In this document: piece by piece, positions 3,140 through 59,585 of the stretch
Layout of the letters: every line of letters starts with the position of its first letter
Numbering within the stretch: the stretch's first letter is position 1
Source of the DNA: Fibrobacterota bacterium
Lineage (GTDB): Bacteria > Fibrobacterota > Fibrobacteria > UBA11236
Direction: 5' to 3'
Assembly: GCA_019509785.1 (NCBI GenBank)
Contig: JAEKLQ010000032.1
Span: 11,229-75,228 of the forward strand
DNA: 64,000 bases
The notes under the pieces: model-generated
The model's database searches: none
What the model saw: the letters and a program-made list of their open reading frames with translations, nothing else
What the model was told of the DNA's origin: nothing
Program-made: the position numbers and the translations under genes

Positions 3140-5095
3140 ATGTCCGCCAATATCGACAGCGTCCTGAACGAAACCCGCAAGTTCCCGGCCCCGGAAGGCT
3201 TCCGGAAGCAGGCCGCGATTTCCTCCTGGGAGGAATACCGGGCCATGTACGATGAGTCGGTAAAGGACCCGGAGAAATTCTGGGCCGGCGTCGCGGGGCA
3301 ATTGCATTGGTTCAAGAAATGGGACCGGGTGCGCAATTGGGACAACGCCCCGTTCGCGAAATGGTTCGAGGGCGGCAAGACCAACCTCTCGTATAACTGC
3401 CTGGACAAGCACCTGGCGAAGCACCGCAACAAGGCCGCCATCCTGTGGGAAGGCGAGCCGACGGGCGAGCGTAAGGTGCTCACCTATGGCGAACTCCACC
3501 GCCAGGTTTGCAAGTTCGCCAACGTCCTAAAGGCCCGCGGGATCAAGAAGGGCGACACCATCGCCCTGTACATGCCCATGGTGCCCGAACTGGCCATCGC
3601 CATGCTGGCCTGCGCCCGCATCGGCGCGGTCCATTCCATCATCTTCGGCGGCTTCTCGGCGCCTGCCATCTCGGATCGCGTGAACGATGCGCAATCGAAA
3701 ATGGTCATCACCGCCGATGGCGGCTATCGCCGCGGGAACGTGCTGCGCCTGAAGGACACGGTCGACGAAGCGCTCAAGACCTGCCCTTCGGTGCATAGCT
3801 GCGTGGTGGTGAGCCGCGCCAAGACGCAGATCCAAATGCAAACCGGGCGCGATTTCTGGTGGCACGATCTGATGGGACAAGCCGATGCCGATTGCCCGGC
3901 CGAAGAGCTGGATTCGGAGCATCCGCTGTACATCCTGTACACCTCGGGAAGCACCGGGAAGCCCAAGGGCATCTTGCACACCACCGGCGGCTACATGGTG
4001 GGAACCTATCTCACCACCAAGTACGTCTTCGACCTAAAGGAAGCGGACACCTATTGGTGCACGGCCGACATCGGTTGGGTCACCGGGCATAGCTACGTCG
4101 TCTATGGCCCGCTCAATACCGGCGCCACCGTGCTCATGTACGAGGGCGCGCCCAACGCTCCCGCCAACGACCGCTTCTGGCAAATCATCGAACGCTACCG
4201 CGTCACCATCTTCTACACCGCGCCCACCGCCATCCGTTCCTTCATGAAATGGGGCGACGACCTGCCCGCCAAATACGACTTGTCATCCTTAAGGCTGCTC
4301 GGTTCGGTGGGCGAACCCATCAATCCGGAAGCCTGGATGTGGTACCACGAGGTCATCGGCGGCAAGCGTTGCCCCATCGTGGATACCTGGTGGCAGACGG
4401 AAACCGGCGCCATCATGATCACGCCCTTGCCCGGCATCACCGCGACCAAACCAGGCTCGGCCACCTTCCCCTTCTTCGGGGTGGACGTCGCCGTGGTCAA
4501 TGACAAGGGCGAAGAGCTAGGCCCGAATCAGGGCGGCTTCCTGGTCATCCGCCAACCCTGGCCCTCCATGCTGCGAACCTTGTACGGCGCCGACGATCGT
4601 TATAAGGAAGTCTACTGGAACCGGTTCGCCAAGCAAGGTTGGTACCTGGCCGGAGACGGCGCGGTCAAGGACGCCGAGGGCTACATCTGGATCCTGGGCC
4701 GCATCGACGACGTGCTGAACGTGTCGGGCCATCGCTTGTCGACCATGGAAGTGGAAAGCGCCCTGGTGGCGCATGCCACGGTCGTGGAAGCCGCCGTGGT
4801 AGGCTTCAAGCATGATATGAAGGGCGAAGGCGTGGCCGCCTTCGTGATCCTGGGCCAAGGCGCGGAGAAGAGCAAGGCGACCAGCGATGCCTTGAAAGCC
4901 CACGTCCGCAACATGATCGGGCCCTTGGCCATGCCCGATCAGATCCATTTCACCGATGCGCTTCCGAAAACCCGTTCGGGCAAGATCATGCGGCGCCTGC
5001 TGCGCGACGTGGCCAACGGCGTGGATACCAAGGGGGACATGACCACCTTGGAAGATCTCACCGTGCTCGCCAAGCTGCGGCAGGACGAGGACTGA
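3140..5095 (+). CDS. acs: acetyl-CoA synthetase (AMP-forming)
   Basis: The N-terminus FPAPEGF...[19 protein letters not shown] and the motifs [18 protein letters not shown] and [10 protein letters not shown] match canonical Acs. The start was trimmed from the six-frame ORF 2816 to the ATG at 3140. Confidence 0.9.
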
Positions 5096-7251: not shown

Positions 7252-8139
7252 ATGTCCACCATGGTACCTACTTCATCTACCACCCCTTTGCGGTCTTTGG
7301 CCCTCCTGATCGCCGGCATCGCATACTGCGTCCATGCCCAAGCGCCGACGGAATCAGCCGACAGCACGAAAAATGGTTGGAAGAGGCAATTCAACGGCAT
7401 GCTCAACCTGTCCCAGGCTTATTACGACAATTGGGCCAAGGGCGGCACCGACGCCTTGACGTATGAAGTGAATTTGGGCGGAGAAGCCACCTACGACCAG
7501 GACAAATATCAATGGGACACCAAGGGCAAGGCCGTCTACGGACGCACCAAGGTCGGCTCCTTGGCTTCCAGGAAATCCTCGGACGAATTGAACCTGGAAT
7601 CCATCTATACCTATAAGCTCGCGGTGATGGTGAATCCCTTCGCCTCCCTCACGGCCCAGTCCCAATTCACCCCGGGGTATGAATATTCCGGCGATACCTC
7701 CCGCACGGAAATCTCCTATGCCTTCGATCCGACCTATTTCACGGAAACGGTCGGCTTGGGAGTGACCCCGTTCAAGGGTTTCAAGGAACGCCTGGGCGCT
7801 TCCATGAAGCAGACCATGTCCTCGCGGGAATTCAAATTCGCCGATGATCCCGAAACCGACGGGATCGAATCCTTTAAGCAAGAGTATGGCGTTACGTCGA
7901 TCACGGAATACGAAGCGGACCTGATGCAGAACATCAAGGGAACCACCCGGCTGGAAATCTTCGCGAACTTCAAGGGTTGGGACGAAATCGATGCGCGCTG
8001 GGCCAATCAGATCACAGCGAAAGTGAACTCGCTGATCAGCGTCAACTTCGAATACGAACTTCTCTACGATAAGGATTTGAGCAAAAGCCGCCAGACCCGC
8101 GAAGGCCTGGGCGTTGGCATTTCCTTCCTGAAAATTTAG
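7252..8139 (+). CDS. outer-membrane beta-barrel protein, DUF3078-like
   Basis: The signal peptide is MSTMVPTSSTTPLRSLALLIAGIAYCVHAQA. The LSQAYYDNWAKGG motif and alternating beta-strand pattern are present, and the protein ends in F (ISFLKI). Confidence 0.5.
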   Translation: MSTMVPTSSTTPLRSLALLIAGIAYCVHAQAPTESADSTKNGWKRQFNGMLNLSQAYYDNWAKGGTDALTYEVNLGGEATYDQDKYQWDTKGKAVYGRTKVGSLASRKSSDELNLESIYTYKLAVMVNPFASLTAQSQFTPGYEYSGDTSRTEISYAFDPTYFTETVGLGVTPFKGFKERLGASMKQTMSSREFKFADDPETDGIESFKQEYGVTSITEYEADLMQNIKGTTRLEIFANFKGWDEIDARWANQITAKVNSLISVNFEYELLYDKDLSKSRQTREGLGVGISFLKI

Positions 8140-28773: not shown

Positions 28774-31482
28774 TCAGGGCGTAGCGGCGGTCTGCGAGCC
28801 GGGCTGCAAGCGCAGGGTCGCCGGAACCGCAAAAGGACTCCCCGTCGCCGGATCGTTATGGTACAGATCCAACCGCCCCGCATAGGTCCCCGCCGGAAGG
28901 CCGTACGCGGCGCCGAAGCGGATCGGCACGGTGATCTCCTCGCCCGGCCCCAACGCCAGGGTCCGTTGGGCCGGCCTCATCCAGTTGTAGAATTCGGACA
29001 GGTGCCGAAGCGAGTTCCCGAGAAAGCGCACGGTTTCGGACTGGGCATGGTCCCCGTCGTGGGGGAGGATGTTGATGAAGACCACAGGTTTCCGCGGGTT
29101 ATAGGCGCCGATCAGGGCCCCAGTGGAATACCGTCCCAAGGGAATCCCCCCTCCCTGGGTCGAGGTCACATTCATCGCCCATTGGCTGAAGAGATTTACG
29201 GTGAGGCCCTCCGTTATGGGATCATCCGCGAATTCCGCCCCGAAATTCCAGACGACCGGCCCGGCCGCTGCTACTGGCGCGTAGTCCGGCGAGGTGATGC
29301 GTCCGCCCAGCGCGGAAGAATGCTGATTAAAGCCGGCCTCAGGGAAAAGCGCCGCACCCATCAGGATCACCTTGCCTCCCGCATCCACGTAGTCGGCGAG
29401 GCGGTTTCCCACGGCCTCCGAATCGGCCCATGGCCCGTCCGCCACTGCGATGACGGCGTCGAACTTCCGCATGTAGGCGAGCGAAGGCGTGCTATCGTAA
29501 CCGGAATAGCTGACGATGCTATCGACGTTGGGATCGTTCAGCAAGCCCCAGAGGAAAAAGTCGCTCTGGCTCTCGAAGGTCTGGCCCGTGGTTTGGAGAT
29601 ACAAGACATTGAGCTTTGCCGGCCCGGTGGGATGGATTCCCGCCGCGGAATCCACCACCGCCCGTAGGCTCAACTTGAGGCTGTCGCCGCCGGGATTCCG
29701 GATGCTCAAAGGTTGATAGACGCTATCGCCTTCGGCCAGGGTCACGTCGAATCCGCGCGGTGAAACGGATAGGATGGGTGGCACGATGCCCAGTCCCCGC
29801 AAGTCGATGGCCGGGGCCGAGGGATCCTCCGCATCGCTTTGGACCAGTAGCTCCGCGCTATCGGCCCCGATGTCCGTAGGCGCGAAGGACGCATTCACGA
29901 GTGCATAGGAGAAGGCGGGAATCTCCAGGGGCAAGGCCGCGGAAAGGGAAAAGGGACCGTCCGTCGTGAATCCCGTAACGTGGGTGGCGGCGCTCCCGAT
30001 GTTCACCAGTCGTACCGCCCGGTTGGCCCGGCTTCCCTGCCAGGTGGGCCCGAAGTCCACGCTCGTCGGATCCACGGCCAGCCTGCGGACTGAGGATACC
30101 GTGAGCGAGACCGGAACGTCGATCGGAACGGCGTTCGTATCGGAGGAGTTCAGCAACCGGATCGCTCCCGCGTGCGCCCCTGCGGTTAGCCGATAGGTGT
30201 TTACGGCGATCTTCAACTCCCGCGTTTCGCCATCGGGCACCACGAAAATCACGGGATCGAACGGCGGCCGCGGGGTCATCCAGGCCAGCATTCCGCCCAG
30301 ATAATCGAAGGTATTCCCGAACAGGCGGGCGATATCGCCGTAAAGCTCGTTATTCCCGACGTTGAGGAAGACCAGGGGCTTGTCCGGATGGTATGCGCCT
30401 ACCAGGGCTCCTCGGGAATAGTAACCCAAAGGGATTCCGATGCCTTGGCCGCGGGTGGTGCCGACGTCCCGGATGGCGCCGGCTGCGAACCAGCCTAGGC
30501 CTGCGGTGATGGGATGCGGGATCAGGCTGGCGCTGGTGTCCCGACGGGTGATCGTCCCCGGTCCGACCGGTTCATAATCCTGGATGCGTCCGTAAAGTGG
30601 ATGCTCGCCGTCGGTGAGGGTACTGGCCGTAAGCAGAACCTTGCCTCCCGCCTCTAGGTAGTCGGCCAACAGGTCCCCTACGGCCACCGAGTCTTTCCAT
30701 GGCCCGACGGAAGCCGCCAGCACGATGTCGTATTCCAGCATGCGGGCGAGAGAGGGCAAGGAATCGCCGCCAAACCAGGCAGCGATGGTATCCACGTTCG
30801 CCAGGGGCCTCAGTTGGGGGATCAATTGATCGTCCCAAAAGGAGGGCATGGTGGTATTGAGGTAAAGCACCCGCCATCCCCGTTCCGGTCGCGGCGTTGC
30901 GGCTCCGATGGCATCGACGAGGATTTCCGCCCGGGGCGACGTTCCATGATTGGTGATCGAAAGCCGGAAGGTATCCGTTTGCGCGGGATTGAGGGCGAGA
31001 TGGACCGAGGCGGGGGCGACGGTGACGGATGCTGTCGGGGAAGGCGGCGCCGTACCGATCCCGGTCACGGGGACGCGGATCTGGGAAAGCGGAGGCTTAG
31101 CGGAGACGGTGAAAAACGCATTCGCGGTTCCCGTATCCGAAGGGGAGAAGGAGATGGGAATCGTTCCTTTGCCCATAGGCGGCAACCGCAACGATCCCGA
31201 AAAGCCCGATGCAAAAGCCTGGGATCTGCCAGCGATCTTCCAAATGCTGATGGCATGCGCGCAGCGGTTGGCAACCCGCAAGGAGTCGGTCTTCCGGGTT
31301 CCGACCTGCACGGGCCCGAAATCGAGGGGCCCGGCCTCCAGGCAGGAGGGCGGAGGGAGGTAATGTCGATGCTCTTCCGGACGGCGGCGCTCTTGCGGAT
31401 GCGCCGAAACCAAGGTCGCGAACAAGGGAATGAGGGCGAAGGCCCGGCGCAAGCGCGCGGAAGGGCGAGGTGAGGCGAACAT
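28774..31482 (-). CDS. secreted paralog family protein B (902 aa), two copies of the ThuA/GATase-like module plus Ig-like domains
   Basis: The start was trimmed to the ATG at 31482 (AAGGAG RBS, signal MFASPRPSARLRRAFALIPLFATLVSAHP). The two modules are YDIVLAASVGPWKDSVAVGDLLADYLEAGGKVLL and FDAVIAVADGPWADSEAVGNRLADYVDAGGKVIL. Confidence 0.6.
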   Translation of the reverse strand: MFASPRPSARLRRAFALIPLFATLVSAHPQERRRPEEHRHYLPPPSCLEAGPLDFGPVQVGTRKTDSLRVANRCAHAISIWKIAGRSQAFASGFSGSLRLPPMGKGTIPISFSPSDTGTANAFFTVSAKPPLSQIRVPVTGIGTAPPSPTASVTVAPASVHLALNPAQTDTFRLSITNHGTSPRAEILVDAIGAATPRPERGWRVLYLNTTMPSFWDDQLIPQLRPLANVDTIAAWFGGDSLPSLARMLEYDIVLAASVGPWKDSVAVGDLLADYLEAGGKVLLTASTLTDGEHPLYGRIQDYEPVGPGTITRRDTSASLIPHPITAGLGWFAAGAIRDVGTTRGQGIGIPLGYYSRGALVGAYHPDKPLVFLNVGNNELYGDIARLFGNTFDYLGGMLAWMTPRPPFDPVIFVVPDGETRELKIAVNTYRLTAGAHAGAIRLLNSSDTNAVPIDVPVSLTVSSVRRLAVDPTSVDFGPTWQGSRANRAVRLVNIGSAATHVTGFTTDGPFSLSAALPLEIPAFSYALVNASFAPTDIGADSAELLVQSDAEDPSAPAIDLRGLGIVPPILSVSPRGFDVTLAEGDSVYQPLSIRNPGGDSLKLSLRAVVDSAAGIHPTGPAKLNVLYLQTTGQTFESQSDFFLWGLLNDPNVDSIVSYSGYDSTPSLAYMRKFDAVIAVADGPWADSEAVGNRLADYVDAGGKVILMGAALFPEAGFNQHSSALGGRITSPDYAPVAAAGPVVWNFGAEFADDPITEGLTVNLFSQWAMNVTSTQGGGIPLGRYSTGALIGAYNPRKPVVFINILPHDGDHAQSETVRFLGNSLRHLSEFYNWMRPAQRTLALGPGEEITVPIRFGAAYGLPAGTYAGRLDLYHNDPATGSPFAVPATLRLQPGSQTAATP

Positions 31483-39444: not shown

Positions 39445-40338
39445 ATGTCCACCTCCGCGATCCCCAAACCGGGCCCGGCCGAAGGCAAGGAGAAGATCTT
39501 CGTCTTTTCCCACCGCGGCGCCTTGGGCGATTTCATCATGACCTGGCCGGCTCTGGTCACCCTGCGCTGGAAATTTTCCGACCACCGCTTCGTAGGGCTG
39601 GGCAAGCTCCCGTATCTGAAGCTCGCGGCGGACATGGGCCTGGTGGACGACGTCTACGATTGCGAAGCCCAGGAGTTCCTGTCATTCTACTCCGGCGATA
39701 TGCTGCCGCGGGCCCTGGACGGAATCACCTCGGCCCTGCTCTGGATGGAGGAAGAGCCCAAGCTCCGGACCCTCTTGCATCAGAGATGCTCCGGCCCTTT
39801 CCATATCCATCCGCCTTTCCCGGCTTCGGGCCAGGAACATGCGATGGATCATCATCTCCAATGCCTGCCTTACTTTTCTCTTCCCGCCGTGCCCGAGGAG
39901 GATTTGTACTTCCCGCTCACCACCACGCGGCAGGGGTACGCGATCATCCATCCGGGTTCCGGCAGCAAGGAGAAGAATTACGATCCCGAGTTCTACGCCT
40001 TCCTGGCGAATGAACTCAAGAGCCGGCGATATCCCGATACGCGCATCGTTCTCGGCCCGGCCGAACGCGAGCTGAAACCCCTGTTCGCGTCGCGCTTTCC
40101 CGTGATCGAGCCGGAAGATCCGCTAGAGCTGGCCCACTTGCTTTCCGGCGCCAACCTGTTCGTCGGGAACGACAGCGGCGTGAGCCATCTGGCCGCCGTG
40201 CTCGGGACCAAGACCTTGGCCTTGTTCAAAGGGCAGAACTACGTGCAATGGGGCGTGCGCGGGAAGGACGCCCATAACCTGGAAGCCGCGAGCGAGGCCC
40301 AGGCGATGACGCGGATCCAGAAGGCCTTGCAAGGGTGA
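39445..40338 (+). CDS. glycosyltransferase family 9 (heptosyltransferase-like)
   Basis: The motifs IHPGSGSKEKNY and GNDSGVSHLAAVLGTKTLALF are GT9 signatures. Confidence 0.7.
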   Translation: MSTSAIPKPGPAEGKEKIFVFSHRGALGDFIMTWPALVTLRWKFSDHRFVGLGKLPYLKLAADMGLVDDVYDCEAQEFLSFYSGDMLPRALDGITSALLWMEEEPKLRTLLHQRCSGPFHIHPPFPASGQEHAMDHHLQCLPYFSLPAVPEEDLYFPLTTTRQGYAIIHPGSGSKEKNYDPEFYAFLANELKSRRYPDTRIVLGPAERELKPLFASRFPVIEPEDPLELAHLLSGANLFVGNDSGVSHLAAVLGTKTLALFKGQNYVQWGVRGKDAHNLEAASEAQAMTRIQKALQG

Positions 40339-40785
40339 AGAGAGGGTAAAGGGTACAGGGTTAAGGGTACAGGGATTTTTTCAGGCTGAATAGGATCTTT
40401 CCGACCTCTTCAGCCTCTTTGTAAGCGGTTTTGATTTGGTCCCGGGATACGAGATCCAGCTTTACCGCCAAGATCAGCAATGTTTGCAATTCAGCTAGAG
40501 AGCCACAAGCGATTGCGAGGAATTGGAGATACTCCTTCCGGTACTGCCGAGCGTAACCCTCCGCAATATTAGCGGGTATTGAAACCGCCGCTCTCCTGAT
40601 TTGCGAGGAAAGCTCAAAGCGCTCTTCAATGGGGAGACTTCGTGCGACGAGATACGCAGCTCGAGCCAAATCAACCCCTCTCCTCCAAGCAGTCAAATCC
40701 CGGTAGGAATTCAATTTCGGCATTACATCCCCCCTTACCTAAACCCTTTACCCTTTACCCTTTACCCTTTACCCTAATCCCTTCT
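40339..40785. mobile_element. inverted heptamer-repeat hairpin element: G-rich arm (GGGTAAA GGGTACA GGGTTAA GGGTACA GGG, 40344-40374) and C-rich arm ((CCCTTTA)n, 40731-40781) enclosing a low-GC four-helix-bundle gene
   Basis: The element fills the whole intergenic space between convergent genes. The arms can base-pair. The enclosed gene is about 48% GC against a 66% background. The same 21-mer GGGTAAAGGGTACAGGGTTAA recurs at 58387-58407. Confidence 0.55.
40361..40723 (-). CDS. four-helix-bundle protein (PF05635-like: 23S rRNA intervening-sequence protein / DGR Avd family)
   Basis: The helical heptad pattern LARAAYLVARSLPIEERFELSSQIRRAAVSIPANIAEGYAR...LQFLAIACGSLAELQT is present. The last four codons (SLYP*) are encoded by the G-rich repeat arm. 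Confidence 0.6.
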   Translation of the reverse strand: MPKLNSYRDLTAWRRGVDLARAAYLVARSLPIEERFELSSQIRRAAVSIPANIAEGYARQYRKEYLQFLAIACGSLAELQTLLILAVKLDLVSRDQIKTAYKEAEEVGKILFSLKKSLYP

Positions 40786-41676
40786 TCACTCCCAAGGTTC
40801 AATCCTCCTTACTCCCCATTCGCCCAATTCGAAGGCGATCGTCCCTTCCCGGTCCGTCCGCAAGATGCGCGCGTCGTCCCCCGACGCTTCGTCGCCCGAC
40901 GCGCCGTCTTCCATCACCCATCGCAAATCCGCCAACGCTTCCGCATGGGGATGGCCGTAAACCGAGCTATCGCAGGAGATGACCGCCCAGCGCGGATGCA
41001 CCGCTTCGATGAAGCCCAGCCCGCTGGAGGTTCGGCTCCCGTGGTGCGCCACTTTCAGGATATCCGCCGCGAGATCGGGGTGATCCGAAAGGATGATTCG
41101 TTCGACAGGGTCCTCGATATCCCCCGTCAGGAGGATGCGCATCCCCGCGCTCTCCACGCGCAGTACCGTGGAAAGATCGTTTCCCGAATACGTGGCGCGG
41201 GGAGCCGGCCATAGGGCCCGCACCCGCACCGCGTCCCAAAGCAAGGTATCGCCCTCGAAGAGGGTTGCCTTATCCGCCCCGGAGACGTCCAATGCGCGCA
41301 TCGCCTCCAACCAGGCCGAATCCGATCGGGTCCCTTCGGGCAAAAACACCTTTTTCACGGGGAAGGCATGCAGCACCGCGGGCAGGGCGCCGAAGTGATC
41401 CAGGTCCGTATGGGAAAGGACGATGGCTTGCAAGGTGTCCGCCCGGACATGTCTGAGAAACGCGATCAAGGCCCGCTCATCGTTCCCGACGTCATTCAAG
41501 TACCATTTGCCTTCGGGAGTCCGCAGGGCGCAGGCATCCCCCTGTCCAACGTCCACGAAAAAAACGCGCAGGCCGGGGGCCTCTTTTTCGGGGACCGCCC
41601 AGGGCGAACAGGCGAGGAAAATGCCCGTGCACGGGGCCAGGAATAGAACGACAATTCTAGGGATGGGGATAAACAT
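40786..41676 (-). CDS. MBL-fold metallo-hydrolase (ComEC C-terminal-like), secreted or membrane-anchored
   Basis: The metal-binding motif HTDLDHFG (HxHxDH) and VAHHGS are present. There is an N-terminal hydrophobic segment. Confidence 0.7.
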   Translation of the reverse strand: MFIPIPRIVVLFLAPCTGIFLACSPWAVPEKEAPGLRVFFVDVGQGDACALRTPEGKWYLNDVGNDERALIAFLRHVRADTLQAIVLSHTDLDHFGALPAVLHAFPVKKVFLPEGTRSDSAWLEAMRALDVSGADKATLFEGDTLLWDAVRVRALWPAPRATYSGNDLSTVLRVESAGMRILLTGDIEDPVERIILSDHPDLAADILKVAHHGSRTSSGLGFIEAVHPRWAVISCDSSVYGHPHAEALADLRWVMEDGASGDEASGDDARILRTDREGTIAFELGEWGVRRIEPWE

Positions 41677-44772: not shown

Positions 44773-46647
44773 TCAGTTCAGCCGCACCAACTCCACCCTA
44801 CGATTCCTCTGCCTCCCGATCGCCGTCCGATTATTATCGATCGGGTCCCGCGCTCCTAAGCCCCGCGCCAGGATCTGATCCGGGGGGATCCCTTTGGAAA
44901 CGAGATATTTCCGCACCGCGTTGGCCCGGGCTTCCGACGAACGCATACCGTCCAATTCGGAGGCGGCCCCGTCCCAGTAGCCGCGCACTTCGACCATGAC
45001 CCCGGGAATGGCGCGGATGCGTTCGGCCAAGGAATCCAACGAAACAAAGGATTCCGGCAAGAGCTTGTCGGTGTTCCCCAGGAAATGGATCGATTTCAAT
45101 AAAGAGCGCTTTTCCAGCGGCGCCGCGCCGCTCCCGCCTTTGCCTGGGGCTTCGTCGGGGCAGCCGTCCCCGTCCTCGAAGCCGTTATAGGTTTCCGGCT
45201 CGTTCGGGCATTTATCGTTGAGGTCCGGGATCTTGTCGTTGTCATTGTCCGGATCGGGACAGCCGTCGGCATCCTCGAAATTGTCCTTGTCCTCGGGAAG
45301 GTTCGGGCACTTATCCACCGCATCGGGCACGCCATCCTTATCGTTATCGAGATCGGGGCAACCGTCGTAATCCTCGAAGCCGTCCATGTCCTCCGGCTCA
45401 TTAGGGCATTTGTCCTGCAAGTCCGGGATGCCATCCTTGTCGTTGTCGGGCTCCGGGCAGCCATCCTCGTCCTGGAAGCCGTCCTTGTCTTCAGGTTGGT
45501 TGGGGCACTTATACAAGGCATCCGGGACGCCGTCCTGATCGTTGTCCGGATCGGGACAGCCATCCGCGTCCTGGAAGCCGTCCTTATCCTCCGGCTCGTT
45601 GGGGCAGGTATCCTCCTTGTCGGGAATCCCGTCATGATCGGCGTCCTCGGCGACGAAGGCCCCGCTCCAGCCTATGTTGGCGGCCAAGCCCCAGCGCGGT
45701 TGAAAGCGGGCCGCGAAGGCGTAGACGCCGTAATTCGCCGGAAGGGCATAGCGGCGGAAGGGCCGCGCGGAGGGAAGGCTTTTCTGGAGGTTCACGGAAA
45801 AGAAGATGCCGTCGTCCCCGCGGGAAGAGAATCCGGCGAAGGCGTAGGAATATTCCTTCCCGATGGCGTCCAAGCCTTTCATCTCCGAGGTACGGGTCTC
45901 GGATTGGGCGCCTCCTAGGAAGGACAGATAGGGTAGGGGTACCCATTCCAGATCTCCGCCCAGCAGGAAACGTTCGCGCGCTCCCGGCAACCCCGAGTTC
46001 GCGAAGCCGGCGTTCAGTGAGGATCGGAAAGGCAGCGGCATAGGCTCAATGCGGGTAAGGTCGAGGGTGAGCAGGGCGCGCGCCGACCAGCCGAAGCCAT
46101 AGGTGGAAAAGAAGCGGGGGGGAGCCACGGTGGAATCATCGGGCATTTCCGCGAAGGACTTGGGCAGGAAGCCTTTTCCGTTTTTCGAGGGAAAGGTCAA
46201 GCCCGCCAGCAAGGCTCCATCGAGGACGTGATCGCCGACGAAAGCATATCCCCCTTTAACGGAGAGGAGGGGATCTCCCAGGCCGGAGCCGGATAGTTCC
46301 TTGGCCTCGGTATCGGTGATGAAATCCCCGTAGTACGGGATGCTGAGGCCGACGTCGAAATGGCTGCCGATGCCCATGGCGAAGTTGAGCCGGATGGCGG
46401 CGCTTTGCATGTCCTGGACCTGGTTGCTGTCGAGGAAACCGGTATAGAGTTGCTTGAGGAAGATGTTATCCCGCACCATGGATTCGTCCTCGTGCCCGGT
46501 GGCGCTGGCCGAAGCGTACAGGGCCAGATGCCCCAAAGGGCGCGCGGAGGGGATGAACAATTCGCCGGGGAGCCCTTCGAGGGTGGCTGCGCATGCGGCG
46601 GAGGCGCAGACGAGGACGGAAAGCCTTAAGAAATTGACCTTTTTCAT
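44773..46647 (-). CDS. OmpA-family outer membrane protein with N-terminal beta-barrel, thrombospondin type-3 Ca-binding repeats and C-terminal OmpA peptidoglycan-binding domain
   Basis: The signal peptide is MKKVNFLRLSVLVCASAACAA. The DxDxDGxxDxxDxCP motif repeats (DKDGFQDADGCPDPDNDQDGVPD...). The OmpA C-terminus is NRTAIGRQRNRRVELV. Confidence 0.8.
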   Translation of the reverse strand: MKKVNFLRLSVLVCASAACAATLEGLPGELFIPSARPLGHLALYASASATGHEDESMVRDNIFLKQLYTGFLDSNQVQDMQSAAIRLNFAMGIGSHFDVGLSIPYYGDFITDTEAKELSGSGLGDPLLSVKGGYAFVGDHVLDGALLAGLTFPSKNGKGFLPKSFAEMPDDSTVAPPRFFSTYGFGWSARALLTLDLTRIEPMPLPFRSSLNAGFANSGLPGARERFLLGGDLEWVPLPYLSFLGGAQSETRTSEMKGLDAIGKEYSYAFAGFSSRGDDGIFFSVNLQKSLPSARPFRRYALPANYGVYAFAARFQPRWGLAANIGWSGAFVAEDADHDGIPDKEDTCPNEPEDKDGFQDADGCPDPDNDQDGVPDALYKCPNQPEDKDGFQDEDGCPEPDNDKDGIPDLQDKCPNEPEDMDGFEDYDGCPDLDNDKDGVPDAVDKCPNLPEDKDNFEDADGCPDPDNDNDKIPDLNDKCPNEPETYNGFEDGDGCPDEAPGKGGSGAAPLEKRSLLKSIHFLGNTDKLLPESFVSLDSLAERIRAIPGVMVEVRGYWDGAASELDGMRSSEARANAVRKYLVSKGIPPDQILARGLGARDPIDNNRTAIGRQRNRRVELVRLN

Positions 46648-46857
46648 ACACCTATTTCGGACGGCCTGCGGCATGGGTCCCGGGGCGTTCGGAGGCCGAT
46701 GGCGCCTGCAAAGTTACTAATAACGTTTCCATTCCAAAGTTTTCCGGCCTTGCCGGAAAGACAGGTTCGAGTTGAAAGTCCTTCGCCGATTAGGATATCA
46801 TGGTTGGGACCGGCCCGCACGGGCAACCTGAAGGTCTATAGCCGGCGCGGAGAAGGC

Positions 46858-47718
46858 ATGAGCAAAAGCCTCGAACAAAAAAAGATTGAACAGATCGAGA
46901 ACCTTCCGACCCTTCCGGAGGTCGCGAACAAACTCCTCAAGATCATCAACGATCCCACCACCACGGCGGTAGACGTCGCCAACCTGATTTCCCGGGACTT
47001 AAGCCTCACTTCGAAGGTGCTGCGCTTGGCCAACTCCGCCTTTTACGGCATCCCCCGTACCGTTACCACCGTCCAGAACGCCGTCGTGATCCTGGGCCTC
47101 AAGGTGATCAACACCATGGTGTTCAGCATTACCGTGGTGAAGATGTTCCCCGGCGACGGTCGCAATGAACTGTTCAGCCGCAAGAAATTCTGGGCCCATT
47201 CGCTGGCCTGCGCCGTATTATCGCGCCAGCTGGCCCTGCGCATGCGCAAGTTCACGCTCTTCGATCCCGAGGAATGCTTTTGCGCCGGGCTTATCCACGA
47301 CATCGGCCGCATCGTGCTGGATCAATACTTCCACGAGAATTTCATCAAGGCGATCAAGACCTCGGTCGAGAAGAAGACTTCCTTGCTCGAGGCGGAGATA
47401 GGCGTGTTCGGTTTCAGCCATCAAGACGTCGGGGATTGGCTGACTTCGCGCTGGGAACTCCCGCAGGACATCCGCATCCCCATCGTGTACCACCATAATC
47501 CCGCCAAGACCGAGTACGCCCGGGAGATCACCACCTTGGTGCACTTGGCCGACAGCATGTGCTTCGACATCGGCTTCAATCTACCCGGCCTGGAAATCCG
47601 CCCCCCGCTCGACACCGCCCTCATCGCCCAATTGGGTTTCACTCCCGAGGATTTGGACGCCGTAAAGGGATCCGCCCACGAGGAGATCGAGAAATTCCAC
47701 TCCGCCTTCGAGATTTGA
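46858..47718 (+). CDS. HDOD domain signalling protein
   Basis: NLPTLPEVANKLLKIINDP...SRDLSLTSKVLRLANSAFYG...GLIHDIGRIVL are HDOD signatures. Confidence 0.75.
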   Translation: MSKSLEQKKIEQIENLPTLPEVANKLLKIINDPTTTAVDVANLISRDLSLTSKVLRLANSAFYGIPRTVTTVQNAVVILGLKVINTMVFSITVVKMFPGDGRNELFSRKKFWAHSLACAVLSRQLALRMRKFTLFDPEECFCAGLIHDIGRIVLDQYFHENFIKAIKTSVEKKTSLLEAEIGVFGFSHQDVGDWLTSRWELPQDIRIPIVYHHNPAKTEYAREITTLVHLADSMCFDIGFNLPGLEIRPPLDTALIAQLGFTPEDLDAVKGSAHEEIEKFHSAFEI

Positions 47719-47872
47719 TCGGTTTATAGACATTCGAGAAGGCGCTCCTTCGAGATTTGACCGAACGGTTTGCCTACGAGAAGGCGCGCCTTCGAGATTT
47801 GATCGGTTTATAGACCTTCGAGAAGGCGCTCCTTCGTGATTTGACGGAAGCGCTTTCCATCGGGAAACCGTT
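47705..47872 (+). repeat. 42-bp tandem repeat x4 (constant CCTTCGAGATTTGA and T[TA]CGAGAAGGCGC blocks with alternating 14-nt variable cores)
   Basis: The CCTTCG[AT]GATTTGA copies lie at 47705, 47747, 47789 and 47831, an exact 42-bp period. The first unit overlaps the HDOD stop. Each unit holds a small GAAGG-CGCT-CCTTC hairpin. Confidence 0.6.
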
Positions 47873-56632: not shown

Positions 56633-58375
56633 ATGGAGACTCCCTTGGATTCGGGACCCCACGGCGGCGACCTCACATCCGAAGTCTATAAGCTAAGGCA
56701 GCAGAACGTCCAGCTCCAGCATTTGCTGAAGTATAAGGACGATGTGGAAATCCCCACCCTGAAGCGTCAGATGGGCCATTTCCAGCACGAGCTGCAAGCC
56801 ACCAAGGCCCAGATGAGCGAGACGGCGAAGCAAGAGGACTTCATCGATCGGCGGTCGGGCATCCTCCACATCGATCGCGACATGCGCGTGGTGAAGATCA
56901 ATAGCTACGCGTTGGAAATCCTCGGCACCTTGCACACCCAGGCCATCGGCCGGCCCATCAAGGAAGTGGGGGTGAACTCGCAATCCGGCCGCCCCATCTT
57001 CGGGGACATCGATTATTACCTCGAGCCCGAAGGCAGGGAGAGCGAGTGGGAGAAGGAAATCCCCATGCCCAACGGGGAGAAGCGCTACTACCACTTCCGC
57101 AGCGCCCTCATCAACGGCATCCGCCTCGTCAGCATCAGCGAGGTGACCGATCTGCGCCTCTCCGAAAGCCGCGTCAAGGCCATCATCGGCTCGTCCAAGG
57201 ATGGCATCGCCTTGGTGGACGAGGGCTCGGTGATCCGTTCCACCAACGCCCGCTTCGGCAAGCTATTCGGGCTGAACTGGCGCCAGTTCGCGGGCATGCA
57301 ATTCGACATCGCCGCCGAGCTGCTGCAATACCATTTCAAGGACCCGCACGAGTTCATGGCCTTTTACGGCGCCATCCAGAAAGAGCCGCAGCTGCATTCC
57401 GAAGGCCTGTTCGAAATGGTGCTGCCGCAATCGGCCGCCTTCCAGATCTACACGCGTCCGATCGTGGATGAGCAAAGCCGCCTGATTGGTCGCGTATGGT
57501 TCGTCACGGATGTCACCAATTTCAAGGAGATGGAGAAGAAGCTGGCCGCCGACGCGGCCAACCTGGAAGTCAAGGTCAACGAGCGCACCGAGGAACTGTA
57601 CGTCCAGAACCAAGAACTGGTGCGCGTGCGCCAGGAGATCGAGATGGAGCTGGACATGGCCAAGCAGGTGCAGCAAGGCATGCTGCCCAAGACCTTGCCC
57701 AAGCTGGACGGGTACGAGGTGGGGGCCGCCTACGCGCCTACCGGCAAGGTTTCCGGCGACTTCTACGATTTCATCCGGTTGGACGAGGATCGCATATTCA
57801 TGCTCATGACCGACGTTTCCGGGCATGGCGTCCCGGCGGCCCTGGTCACGGCGATGGCCAAGATGGCCTTCGACCGCCACGTGAAGGCGGGCCTTTCCGT
57901 CTCGGCGATCCTCATGAACGTGAACGTGGATTTATGCGCGGCCATCAATACCGATCATTACCTCACCGCATTCGCGGGCATCCTCGATCTCAACACCGGG
58001 AAGCTGACCTATAGCCGGGTATGCCATCCCTATCCGGTCATCTACCGGCACGCGGACCAGAGCCTGGAGCATTTGCAGATGCGCGGGGGCTTTTTCCTGG
58101 GCATGTTCGAGGACAATAGCTATTCCGAACAGGAGACCTTCCTGAACCCCGGCGATCTCCTCTTCGTATACACCGACGGCATCAACGAGAGCTTCAACAA
58201 CAAGGATGAACTCTACGGGCGCAAGCGCCTGGACGAGGTGATCCTCCGGTTCGCCCGCCACGGAGCCCAGGAAACCATCGCCCAGGCGCAGCTCGACAAG
58301 GAGCGGTTCTCCGAAGGGCGGCAAAGCCTCGACGATATCTCGATTTTCGCCATCAAGCGGCGGGAAGCCAGGTAA
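56633..58375 (+). CDS. PAS-domain PP2C-type (SpoIIE/RsbU-like) Ser/Thr phosphatase
   Basis: GDFYDF...DVSGHGVPAALVTAM...YTDGINE are PP2C metal-binding signatures. There are N-terminal coiled-coil and PAS-like repeats. Confidence 0.8.
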   Translation: METPLDSGPHGGDLTSEVYKLRQQNVQLQHLLKYKDDVEIPTLKRQMGHFQHELQATKAQMSETAKQEDFIDRRSGILHIDRDMRVVKINSYALEILGTLHTQAIGRPIKEVGVNSQSGRPIFGDIDYYLEPEGRESEWEKEIPMPNGEKRYYHFRSALINGIRLVSISEVTDLRLSESRVKAIIGSSKDGIALVDEGSVIRSTNARFGKLFGLNWRQFAGMQFDIAAELLQYHFKDPHEFMAFYGAIQKEPQLHSEGLFEMVLPQSAAFQIYTRPIVDEQSRLIGRVWFVTDVTNFKEMEKKLAADAANLEVKVNERTEELYVQNQELVRVRQEIEMELDMAKQVQQGMLPKTLPKLDGYEVGAAYAPTGKVSGDFYDFIRLDEDRIFMLMTDVSGHGVPAALVTAMAKMAFDRHVKAGLSVSAILMNVNVDLCAAINTDHYLTAFAGILDLNTGKLTYSRVCHPYPVIYRHADQSLEHLQMRGGFFLGMFEDNSYSEQETFLNPGDLLFVYTDGINESFNNKDELYGRKRLDEVILRFARHGAQETIAQAQLDKERFSEGRQSLDDISIFAIKRREAR

Positions 58376-58376
58376 G

Positions 58377-58510
58377 AAAGGGTATAGGGTAAAGGGTACA
58401 GGGTTAATCAAGACCAATCCAATCTGCCGCCGGGCATCGCCCTTTACCCTTTACCCTTTACCCTTTACCCTTTACCCTTTACCCTTTACCCTTTACCCTA
58501 AAACCCCCAC
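58377..58510. repeat. heptamer inverted-repeat hairpin: G-rich arm GGGTATAGGGTAAAGGGTACAGGGTTAA, 32-nt loop, C-rich arm (CCCTTTA)x8. An 'empty' version of the element at 40339-40785.
   Basis: The element directly follows the PP2C stop. The arms are complementary and capable of G4 or i-motif formation. It is a perfect tandem (CCCTTTA)8. Confidence 0.7.
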
Positions 58511-58577
58511 CGGCCATCTACTATCTCCACTCCGCGAGAAAACTATCTTCTCCCCACACCCTTCGGAGGTTTCTTCC

Positions 58578-59585
58578 GTGAACGTTCTCGTCGTCGGCGG
58601 AGCCGGATACATAGGCTCCCATGTGGTCAAGGCCCTGTTGCGCGCGGGCGCGCGGGTTACCGTGTTCGACAACCTTTCTTCGGGCCTACGGGGCAACCTG
58701 CGGCCCGGGGCGAAGTTCCGGCATGGCGACATTCTCGATTCCCGCGCCCTGGATGAAGCTTGCGCCGGGGAGGGCGCCGCCGGTGAAGGCGCCTACGACG
58801 GGGTCATCCATCTTGCCGCCCTCAAGGCCGCGGGCGACTCCATGCTGCAACCCGAGAAATATTCCACCCATAACATAACGGGCACCTTGAACCTTTTGAA
58901 CGCGGTCGCGCGCGCGGGCATCAAGCACTTCGTGTTCTCTTCCTCCGCGGCCGTCTACGGCGATCCGGTTTACCAGCCCATGGACGAAAAGCATCCGACC
59001 GTGCCCGCCAATTATTACGGCTACACCAAATTGGCCATCGAAGGATTCCTGGATTGGTACCAGCGCCTGAAGGGCGTCCGCTTCGCCGCCTTGCGCTATT
59101 TCAACGCGGCCGGTTACGATCTCGACGGGGAAATTAATGGCCTGGAGCAGAACCCCAACAACTTGTTGCCTGTCATCATGGAAGCGGCCATGGGCTGGCG
59201 GAAGGAACTCCAGGTATTCGGAAACGACTATCCGACCCGGGACGGGACCTGCATCCGCGATTATATCCATGTGGAGGATTTGGCTTCCGCCCATGTCCTG
59301 GCCTTGCAAAAGCTGATGGCGGGCACCGATCGGTTAGTGGTCAACCTGGGGACGGGCTCAGGCATCACCGTGATGGAAATGGTGAAAATGGCCGGGGAAA
59401 TCTCCGGAAAACCCGTTCCCTACCGCATGGTAGGCCGCCGCGAAGGCGATCCCCCCTCCGTGACCGCATCCGCCGGCTTGGCCAAACAGCTGCTGGGATG
59501 GGAGGCGAAACACAGCGATGTAGGTACTTTATTGAGAACCACCTGGAAGGCCTATCAAGCCAATGCCAAGGAACGATTGAACTAA
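58578..59585 (+). CDS. galE: UDP-glucose 4-epimerase
   Basis: The NAD motif GGAGYIGSH and the YxxxK active site (YGYTK) are present. The start is GTG. Confidence 0.85.
   Translation: MNVLVVGGAGYIGSHVVKALLRAGARVTVFDNLSSGLRGNLRPGAKFRHGDILDSRALDEACAGEGAAGEGAYDGVIHLAALKAAGDSMLQPEKYSTHNITGTLNLLNAVARAGIKHFVFSSSAAVYGDPVYQPMDEKHPTVPANYYGYTKLAIEGFLDWYQRLKGVRFAALRYFNAAGYDLDGEINGLEQNPNNLLPVIMEAAMGWRKELQVFGNDYPTRDGTCIRDYIHVEDLASAHVLALQKLMAGTDRLVVNLGTGSGITVMEMVKMAGEISGKPVPYRMVGRREGDPPSVTASAGLAKQLLGWEAKHSDVGTLLRTTWKAYQANAKERLN

Follow-up and report, generated by a model that had tools for sequence, protein, structure and literature searches.

Three puzzles have so far stood apart: the intervening sequences (IVSs) of 23S rRNA with their conserved small open reading frame (ORF), the intergenic heptamer repeats of Xanthomonas and cyanobacteria, and the role of a large protein family annotated as "four helix bundle protein" or "S23 ribosomal protein". 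We analysed a stretch of 64,000 nucleotides (nt) from a Fibrobacterota bacterium (lineage UBA11236; assembly GCA_019509785.1, contig JAEKLQ010000032.1, positions 11,229 to 75,228), hereafter the window, in which two hairpins with arms of inverted 7-nt repeats lie 18 kb apart. One of them, locus B (58376-58539), has no gene in its loop, and the other, locus A, encloses a gene for a four-helix-bundle (4HB) protein. Our results suggest that the three puzzles are facets of one element, namely a gene in the loop of a heptamer stem together with its empty copies.

The heptamer repeats of Xanthomonas and Nostoc were described by Rehm et al. (2015) as GGGAATC and GGGGA(C/T)T units that are intergenic, prefer four copies and are found just past stop codons if they are on the sense strand and upstream of ORFs if they are on the antisense strand (PMC4692102). 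Xanthomonas genomes contain 70-75 convergent inverted pairs each. Related heptamers fold into G-quadruplexes (G4s), and their C-rich strands into i-motifs, in vitro; the function was left open, no regulatory role was found, phase variation was considered unlikely, 4HB genes went unmentioned, and no link to mobility was drawn (PMC4692102). In the case of the Coxiella 23S IVS, Warrier et al. described an ORF of the 4HB family with 2-3 tandem heptamers upstream, their number varying between strains; heptamers and ORF lie together within a terminal-inverted-repeat stem that is cut by RNase III (PMC4990558). Zhang et al. noted 4HB genes inside cas operons, but not the repeats (PMC3936711), and TAACTGA heptamers are known as direct repeats in Beggiatoaceae (PMC4679880). 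The Coxiella IVS description aside, no paper tying PF05635/4HB genes to flanking heptamer arrays was found in the searchable open-access literature.

Locus B is a cargo-less member of a family of hairpins with inverted 7-nt repeat arms, and this assignment is well supported. The sequence-only reading of the window had described a GGGTNNA x4 arm, a 32-nt loop and a perfect CCCTTTA array between a phosphatase gene and galE, as well as a 21-mer in common with position 40344. Direct reading of the sequence bears out all of these features (Table 1), the 21-mer GGGTAAAGGGTACAGGGTTAA being located at 58387-58407 and at 40344-40364. The C array has a period of 7 with 8.6 copies and 100% matches (Tandem Repeats Finder), and all tandem 7-nt units of the locus open with at least three G, so read that the minus strand gives (TAAAGGG)8. 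About four units of the C array pair with the G arm and about four are surplus. Arm complementarity amounts to 90% across 31 nt, and the predicted fold reaches -52.7 kcal/mol as RNA (z = -4.7 against shuffled sequence) and -27.7 kcal/mol as DNA (z = -4.5). The G arm begins 4 nt past the TAA stop of the phosphatase gene, and 78 nt separate the end of the C array from the galE start.

At locus A, the 21-mer is followed by one further GGGTACAGGG, then by a minus-strand ORF of 120 amino acids and then by (CCCTTTA)x4.7, which spans 40743-40775. Both C arrays terminate in CCCTTTACCCTAA. A search of the window for CCCTTTACCCTTTA with at most two mismatches gave 19 matches, compared to 0.12 expected from shuffles; 18 of these lie within loci A and B, and the last is a stray two-mismatch match at 29942. 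Besides locus A, no further 4HB-like coding sequence is present in the window. The proposal that loci A and B represent one and the same kind of element, once with and once without a 4HB gene in the hairpin loop, is upheld. Furthermore, the inner arm edge TTAACCCTGTACCCTTTACCCT is common to both loci over 22/22 nt, and the TTAA from which the 4HB gene takes its stop codon is part of it. Because of this shared edge, locus B was probably copied within the genome from an A-type cassette.

The locus A protein matches PF05635 (E 4e-35) and TIGR02436 (E 3e-34), families that carry the annotation names "23S rRNA intervening sequence protein", "S23 ribosomal protein" and "four helix bundle protein". 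Its closest solved structure is Xcc0516 (PDB 2GSC). The degenerate arm itself codes on the minus strand for the end of the gene (TCC CTG TAC CCT TAA, translated S L Y P *), and in the sense RNA the arms are predicted to pair around the whole ORF in both the minimum-free-energy and the centroid structure (z = -4.8). The C arm ends 3 nt short of where the convergent ComEC-type MBL gene has its stop codon. As an additional observation, the inverted repeat of locus A reaches past the heptamers, at 40335-40352 and 40772-40789 (GTGAAGAG and CTTCTTCAC), so as to cover the stop codons of both convergent neighbours. Regarding other annotations, PADLOC gave no defence-system match for the locus A protein. 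A diversity-generating retroelement with Avd was considered and rejected: the protein is a weak Avd relative that scores 34.5 bits, under the cut-off of 80, and the neighbours of the locus are a heptosyltransferase-like GT9 glycosyltransferase, the ComEC-type MBL, a PRPP-synthase-like protein and a Ser/Thr kinase.

The association of 4HB genes with heptamer arms is found far beyond the window, inverted period-7 arms flanking nearly all of the 4HB genes sampled. An exact scan for (CCCTTTA)3CCC, carried out with one genome per species, gave at least 120 places, and the phyla among the matches listed were Cyanobacteria, Bacteroidota, Acidobacteriota, Nitrospirota, Desulfobacterota-type metagenome-assembled genomes (MAGs), Gammaproteobacteria, Verrucomicrobiota, Elusimicrobia and archaea. 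Further copies of the hairpin, which the sequence-only reading had called for, thus occur in many phyla. Among the same matches listed, seven of nine 4HB ORFs lie within 33 nt of a (CCCTTTA) array; the remaining two have arms of another unit, TTAGAYY upstream and its complement downstream. As a control for bias, plasmids were searched with the 4HB protein alone, and 12 of the 29 records found were fetched. Inverted period-7 arms could be recognised around 10 of these 12 plasmid genes. The arm units of the plasmid cassettes were GGGTGTA/TACACCC, GGGAGTA/TACTCCC, GGTGACA/TGTCACC, GGCAGAA/TTCTGCC, GGAGATA/TATCTCC, GGGAAAA/TTTTCCC, GGACAGA/TCTGTCC, GGGAGCA/TGCTCCC and AAGGTTY/RAACCTT. In the case of the Gemmatirosa plasmid gene (L142; L-numbers denote loci fetched from relatives or other genomes), a period-8 array is clear downstream only. 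Inverted heptamer arms together with 4HB genes are also present in MAGs of Dehalococcoidia, Planctomycetota and Armatimonadota.

To describe these arms numerically, an arm-complementarity score was calculated by local alignment of the upstream flank to the reverse complement of the downstream flank. For 19 4HB genes its median was 17.5, compared to a median of 7.5 for 874 control ORFs (95th percentile 10.2, 99th percentile 15.3). The consensus units agree at 5.2/7 positions within a cassette's own arm pair and at 3.6/7 in cross pairs (permutation p ~5e-5). The orthologous site between the GT9 and ComEC-type genes shows the same in four lineages, with the units GGGTAAA, GGGTTAA, GGGGTTA and GGGTAGA, each accompanied by a matching partner arm. 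Variation of the units with the arms still matching is the mark left by selection for pairing or by concerted evolution of the two arms.

In the case of Xcc0516, the orthologs in Xanthomonas citri (L158, 724-1181) and X. campestris (L160, 724-1172) sit between accB and accC and are flanked by inverted heptamers of the GGGAATC type (GGGAATCGGGAGTGGAGAATGGGGAATCGG upstream, CCCACTCCCCATTCTCGACTCCCTATTCCC downstream), the C arm abutting the accC ATG. Because this gene lies inside a repeat pair of the published type, the repeat class and the 4HB cassette are physically the same thing, at least there. On the cyanobacterial plasmids L144, L146 and L148, 4HB cassettes with heptamer arms separate either cas6 from cas4 or cmr2 from cmr3, and the reported "association" of 4HB genes with CRISPR-Cas may simply be cassette insertion into operons. 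A different kind of placement was seen for two cassettes with GTGGYYA/TRACCAC arms, L155 601-996 (Dehalococcoidia, GCA_040882355.1) and L156 601-990 (Planctomycetota, GCA_003695565.1), which occupy the same position in one conserved host frame in two phyla (..NLFVIFGEPD, then ..GVDVF.P.TGEVRSD..ACWFIDTDYNEESFF), reminiscent of an intron or intein. We also noted metagenome contigs with 4HB genes that begin or end inside the arms, namely L152 (a 513-nt contig), L154, L114 and a 1,260-nt JGI contig. Heptamer arrays seem to break short-read assemblies and can be flagged as a frequent cause of such breaks.

The diversity of the arm units bears directly on the possibility that locus B is a G4 or i-motif element of DNA or RNA that acts on transcription, replication or genome stability, the hairpin being secondary. 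The G arm of locus B matches the canonical motif (G3N4G3N4G3N4G3) in having exactly four GGG tracts, separated by 4-nt loops, and folded alone with the G4 option it reaches -10.3 kcal/mol in ViennaRNA. Four G tracts are also the most frequent form of the partner arm in cargo-less hairpins, matching the published preference for four units, and the G4s and i-motifs formed in vitro by related heptamers point in the same direction (PMC4692102). In addition, the four surplus units of the array could make one minus-strand G4 beside the hairpin. However, many cassettes have arms that lack G tracts (TTAGAYY, GGTGACA, GGAGATA, AAGGTTY, GTGGTTA). Therefore a G4 cannot be the shared principle, whereas arm complementarity is shared. 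The predicted hairpin is moreover far stabler than the G4 (-52.7 compared to about -10 kcal/mol) once both arms are transcribed, and the authors who described the repeat class found no regulatory role for it (PMC4692102). Overall, we hold a G4-based explanation to be improbable; the arm of this particular copy may adopt a G4 or i-motif.

Hairpins without a gene show patterns of their own. Within the 1.06 Mb of sequence fetched, there were 49 cases in which a C-tract arm comes within 250 nt after a G-tract arm, and two of the opposite order, a strictness that hints at a strand-specific property and to this extent speaks for the G4 explanation. The spacers fall into three classes: 11-46 nt (minimal loops, locus B included), 59-224 nt and 303-506 nt. 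The script used for this purpose gives locus B a spacer of 36 nt, as it takes the arm to end at the last GGG. Spacers of 369-506 nt contain an intact 4HB gene. Two kinds of locus have 5'-deleted 4HB remnants between the arms, L065 with a 303-nt spacer (7556-7934; hidden Markov model (HMM) E 4e-4) and L137/L138 with a 309-nt gap, and these are intermediates between the full cassette and the empty hairpin. In the sampled loci, cargo-less hairpins are by far the commoner form. Conserved loops are shared among cyanobacterial cargo-less hairpins (L017; L032/L097; L001/L089/L085/L099/L119), the short type being the near-palindrome AAAGGTTTTAATTCCTTT, and in L017 two hairpins 1.3 kb apart (3280-3403 and 4670-4828) have loops of 83 and 111 nt that are ~90% identical. 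These cyanobacterial cargo-less hairpins with conserved loops behave as dispersed repeat families.

Such families raise the question of whether locus B ever had cargo. It could be an empty landing pad: hairpins would spread alone, and a separate selfish 4HB gene would enter their loops or be copied in by recombination between arms, so that locus B never held a gene. The numerical excess of cargo-less over cargo-bearing hairpins, both in the sampled loci and in Xanthomonas with its 70-75 inverted pairs per genome (PMC4692102), is in line with this, and the short palindromic loops of the cyanobacterial families and the L017 pair suggest multiplication without cargo. The gene is also always found at the apex of the loop, and the locus B loop is without a 4HB remnant. 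On the other hand, the 4HB gene at locus A draws its final four codons and its stop from the arm itself, and locus B has retained this TTAACCCTGTACCC edge, as would more readily be expected of an arm that had moved together with a gene. The partly deleted remnants between arms show that loss of cargo occurs, and no orthologous site was found to have the same hairpin both with and without cargo. Altogether, we consider an empty landing pad unlikely.

The last point also concerns the loop as a site of insertion or excision, an idea put forward from the sequence alone. In its favour, the gene lies between the arms in every cassette examined, remnants included, and a role of the loop as the cargo site is reasonable. 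The direct case, one hairpin filled in some genomes and empty in others at an orthologous position, was not found; L048 and L104 are the only orthologous pair among the loci with cargo, and neither is empty, so that insertion or excision at the loop is what we infer and not what we observe. These two Nostoc cassettes, with flanks that are 93-95% identical, differ in the number of arm units. The length polymorphism that had been predicted for such arrays is thus found between orthologous cassettes, and relatives differ in whether they have the element at all.

This variation was followed in the relatives of the window genome, which in the case of locus B were obtained by a metagenome scan with the phosphatase. 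In 5/5 syntenic relatives the order from phosphatase to galE is kept and the heptamers are absent; nucleotide identity is 88-92% for L121, 84% for L122 and L123 (which have identical sequence here), 82% for L124 and 71% for L125. In comparison with L121, the difference is a clean indel (Table 1). An ACTATCT repeat to the right of locus B is a local duplication on one side only. The state of the locus A site, between the stop codons of the GT9 gene and the convergent ComEC-type MBL gene, varies as well. It is empty in L135, with the stop codons 6 nt apart (same contig as L121, GT9 93% identical), and in L136; an intact cassette is present in L152 (4HB 76% identical) and in L153/L154 (64% identical); and L137/L138 have a 5'-deleted 4HB pseudogene between decayed arms (3817-4125). 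Third-codon identity among the lineages compared is 57-74%, which indicates that they are old. When the divergence of 4HB and host genes is compared at the GT9/ComEC site, synonymous sites are near saturation (third-codon identity 57-67%), which fits inheritance with losses as well as repeated insertion. Because syntenic relatives lack locus B, it counts by its distribution as accessory rather than as a regulatory site that is conserved, and we read it as an accessory insertion.

The absence from relatives is of importance for the proposal that the hairpin is a terminator or insulator evolved by the host between phosphatase and galE, either intrinsic or dependent on Rho through the G-free, C-rich (CCCUUUA)n. 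The strong stem immediately after the stop codon would suit such a function, and the ~30 nt of unpaired C-rich, G-free RNA left over may resemble a Rho-loading site. However, a scan of 58200-58700 gave no intrinsic terminator on either strand, and no T-run follows the stem on either strand, CCCTAAAACCCCC coming next. As the hairpin is missing from the five syntenic relatives, it is not a conserved control element, and the same architecture lies inside operons that must be read through, at the essential accB-accC and at cas6-cas4 and cmr2-cmr3. A terminator, which had been one of the functions suggested for the locus, is thus very unlikely.

Least likely of all is a contingency microsatellite, in which slippage of (CCCTTTA)n would switch or tune galE and hence surface polysaccharide. 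A perfect array of 8.6 units is indeed prone to slippage, arm unit numbers differ between L048 and L104 and between Coxiella strains (PMC4990558), and both window loci adjoin envelope-sugar genes, the heptosyltransferase-like GT9 gene and galE. Nevertheless, the array is outside any reading frame, 78 nt upstream of the galE start, and a promoter scan gave no promoter-like hexamers overlapping it; that 7 is not divisible by 3 has no bearing where no reading frame is involved. In many phyla the same arrays adjoin genes of all functional classes, and for this class of repeats Rehm et al. spoke against phase variation (PMC4692102). A switch for galE is consequently hard to credit.

In our interpretation, which we regard as fairly probable, locus B is a selfish cassette like the 23S rRNA IVSs, minus its cargo, that folds into an RNA stem of ~30 bp. 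The following course of events is proposed. Starting from an A-type cassette, locus B would have lost its gene by internal deletion, or would have been copied without it, and slippage would later, and recently, have expanded its C arm to 8.6 perfect units. By analogy with the described IVSs, the hairpin may be transcribed within the phosphatase-galE intergenic RNA, where the G arm would pair with about four C units in an imperfect stem of ~30 bp. The same kind of stem encloses the 4HB genes of 23S IVSs, where it is cut by RNase III; here it could likewise form a self-contained RNA domain that is clipped out or serves as a stable 3' or 5' end, leaving the host genes unbroken. A mechanism of the RNase III type is thus inferred from the IVS analogy. 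A stem that is cut or that caps mRNAs would account for the tolerance of the cassettes within operons and in direct contact with stop and start codons. For a cargo-less copy, some processing or stabilisation of flanking mRNAs is the most that is expected, and no host function need be assumed. More speculatively, long arms that differ little from copy to copy could act as portable homology, recombination between copies moving or erasing the cargo.

Several points weigh against this interpretation. Firstly, the arm match of 22/22 between loci A and B is just one base above that between locus A and its ortholog L152 (21/22). Secondly, when six-frame translations of the locus B loop and of other short spacers were searched with an HMM built from the 4HB hits, L065 alone gave a match and no 4HB remnant was revealed in the locus B loop, and neither the 32-nt loop nor the 40-nt right flank has homologs in the window or in the ~160 fetched loci; as the loop has no remnant and no homolog, an origin by loss of cargo is not demonstrated. 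Thirdly, no target-site duplication surrounds the 164-nt insert when compared to the empty site of L121, and there is no transposase or partner of the REP-associated tyrosine transposase (RAYT) type among the immediate neighbours, beyond which no candidate was sought. Furthermore, the relatives belong to other species, the nearest having a third-codon identity of only 74%, and judging from such sequences gain in the window lineage and loss in the relatives would not be separable with certainty. Finally, a simple hairpin model does not account for the set order of the arms, G-rich before C-rich, and in Pseudanabaena galeata (L148, cas6-4HB-cas4, 380-990) the heptamers are direct, with (AAGCTAA)x14 upstream and (AAGCCAA)x10 downstream. 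This is the one clear exception, and it is a misfit with a pure stem model.

Table 1. Coordinates of the two heptamer hairpins and of the genes next to locus B (positions within the window).
Feature	Position	Strand	Basis or remark
Locus B, G-rich degenerate arm, GGGTATA GGGTAAA GGGTACA GGGTTAA	58380..58407	+	Sequence read directly
Locus B, loop/spacer, 32 nt, TCAAGACCAATCCAATCTGCCGCCGGGCATCG	58408..58439	.	Sequence read directly
Locus B, C-rich arm, (CCCTTTA)x8 + CCCT	58440..58499	+	Tandem Repeats Finder
164-nt indel relative to L121, the closest syntenic relative, which has 3 nt: hairpin plus right flank of ~40 nt	58376..58539	.	
Upstream neighbour of locus B, PAS + SpoIIE/PP2C phosphatase gene	56633..58375	+	Context only
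Downstream neighbour of locus B, galE	58578..59585	+	TIGR01179 E 2e-104; context only
Locus A, G-rich degenerate arm, GGGTAAA GGGTACA GGGTTAA GGGTACA GGG	40344..40374	+	
Locus A, cargo, 120-aa four-helix-bundle (4HB) protein, PF05635/TIGR02436	40361..40723	-	
Locus A, C-rich arm, CCTAAA (CCCTTTA)x4.7 CCCTAATCCC	40738..40783	+	

Some further observations concern the loci or the rest of the window. The locus B loop has a mini-ORF on the minus strand, MPGGRLDWS*, which starts with ATGCC like the 4HB gene; the likeness is too short to count, and the candidate was rejected. A telomere-like origin of the arrays was rejected as well: CCCTTTA is not the plant telomere unit (CCCTAAA), and a G-rich arm that is 5' on both strands is the opposite of telomeric polarity. 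Two other repeats were seen in the window. At 47705-47850, ~3.5 tandem copies of a 42-nt unit, each with the palindrome CCTTCGAGA...TCGAGAAGG, lie downstream of the ORF at 46699-47718. At 45194-45614, a 99/198-nt tandem repeat (73-75% matches) within the minus-strand ORF 44773-46674 is probably a repeated protein module.

What is new here is the connection itself: the cassette is a heptamer stem plus a 4HB gene, the empty copy is the repeat pair, and the rRNA IVS is a special case. A broader proposal can be derived from it, which we put forward as tentative. All PF05635 4HB genes, tens of thousands in Bacteria, would be cargo of one class of selfish hairpin cassettes with inverted heptamer arrays as co-evolving ends; IVSs would be the rRNA-resident case, the Xanthomonas and cyanobacterial pairs together with locus B would be cargo-less derivatives or landing pads, and the 4HB pentamer, an Avd relative, would act on the heptamer stem (RNA or DNA) for maintenance or spread. 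If the three puzzles are indeed facets of one element, this gives a concrete and testable model and accounts for the 4HB genes within operons (accBC, cas clusters), which misled annotation by guilt of association. For the window genome, the hairpin next to galE is to be treated as an accessory insertion and not as a regulatory site on which to build hypotheses.

The comparison with known systems can be extended to other small repeats. The repetitive extragenic palindromic (REP) sequences and bacterial interspersed mosaic elements (BIMEs) of enterobacteria and the Correia/NEMIS elements of Neisseria are short, non-coding hairpin insertions that are co-transcribed, polymorphic between strains and tolerated in operons. 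They act as RNA stem-loops that are processed or stabilise mRNA: Correia elements serve as substrates for RNase III, and protection of 3' ends is known from REP elements. Unlike the element described here, REP/BIME and Correia elements consist of a unique inverted repeat and not of tandem heptamers; here a protein-coding full form exists, whose product is no known transposase. In terms of elements of the REP type or of MITEs, miniature transposable elements with inverted repeats, presence/absence polymorphism is observed (absence in L121-L125 at locus B and in L135/L136 at locus A), and a target-site duplication is not. The short tandemly repeated repetitive (STRR) sequences of cyanobacteria are intergenic 7-mers. 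Together with the TAACTGA heptamers they are similar to the present arrays in being intergenic tandem 7-mers, abundant in cyanobacteria and some Bacteroidota, for which horizontal spread has been suggested. They differ in forming direct arrays, usually upstream of start codons, without an inverted pair that encloses a loop or a gene.

The 23S rRNA IVSs of Leptospira and Coxiella (Ralph and McClelland 1993, as cited in PMC4990558) have the same cargo family, a long terminal-inverted-repeat stem and a patchy distribution, and are regarded as selfish. The long stem is present at both window loci, and a PF05635 ORF is enclosed at locus A and not at locus B. Neither locus is an insertion into helix 25/45 of 23S rRNA, and no Rfam family, rRNA included, matched anywhere in the window. 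The present elements are thus unlike IVSs in lying between protein-coding genes, locus B also in lacking an ORF, and excision by RNase III is demonstrated for the IVSs.

In the case of the pairs described by Rehm et al., the differences are the unit of locus B, GGGTAAA, and its phylum, Fibrobacterota, which adds a new unit and a new phylum to the described repeat class. The galE start, 78 nt away, is also outside the 50 bp used to assign repeats upstream of ORFs. The likenesses are more extensive: 7-nt units with a leading G tract, an intergenic and convergent arrangement, a location at most 50 bp after a stop codon, four units, and a number of units that varies between relatives. As to copy number, there are two copies in the 64 kb studied here and ~185 repeat sites in a Xanthomonas genome of ~5 Mb, a similar density. 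The "convergent" G-rich pairs of Xanthomonas and Nostoc correspond to cargo-less hairpins such as locus B.

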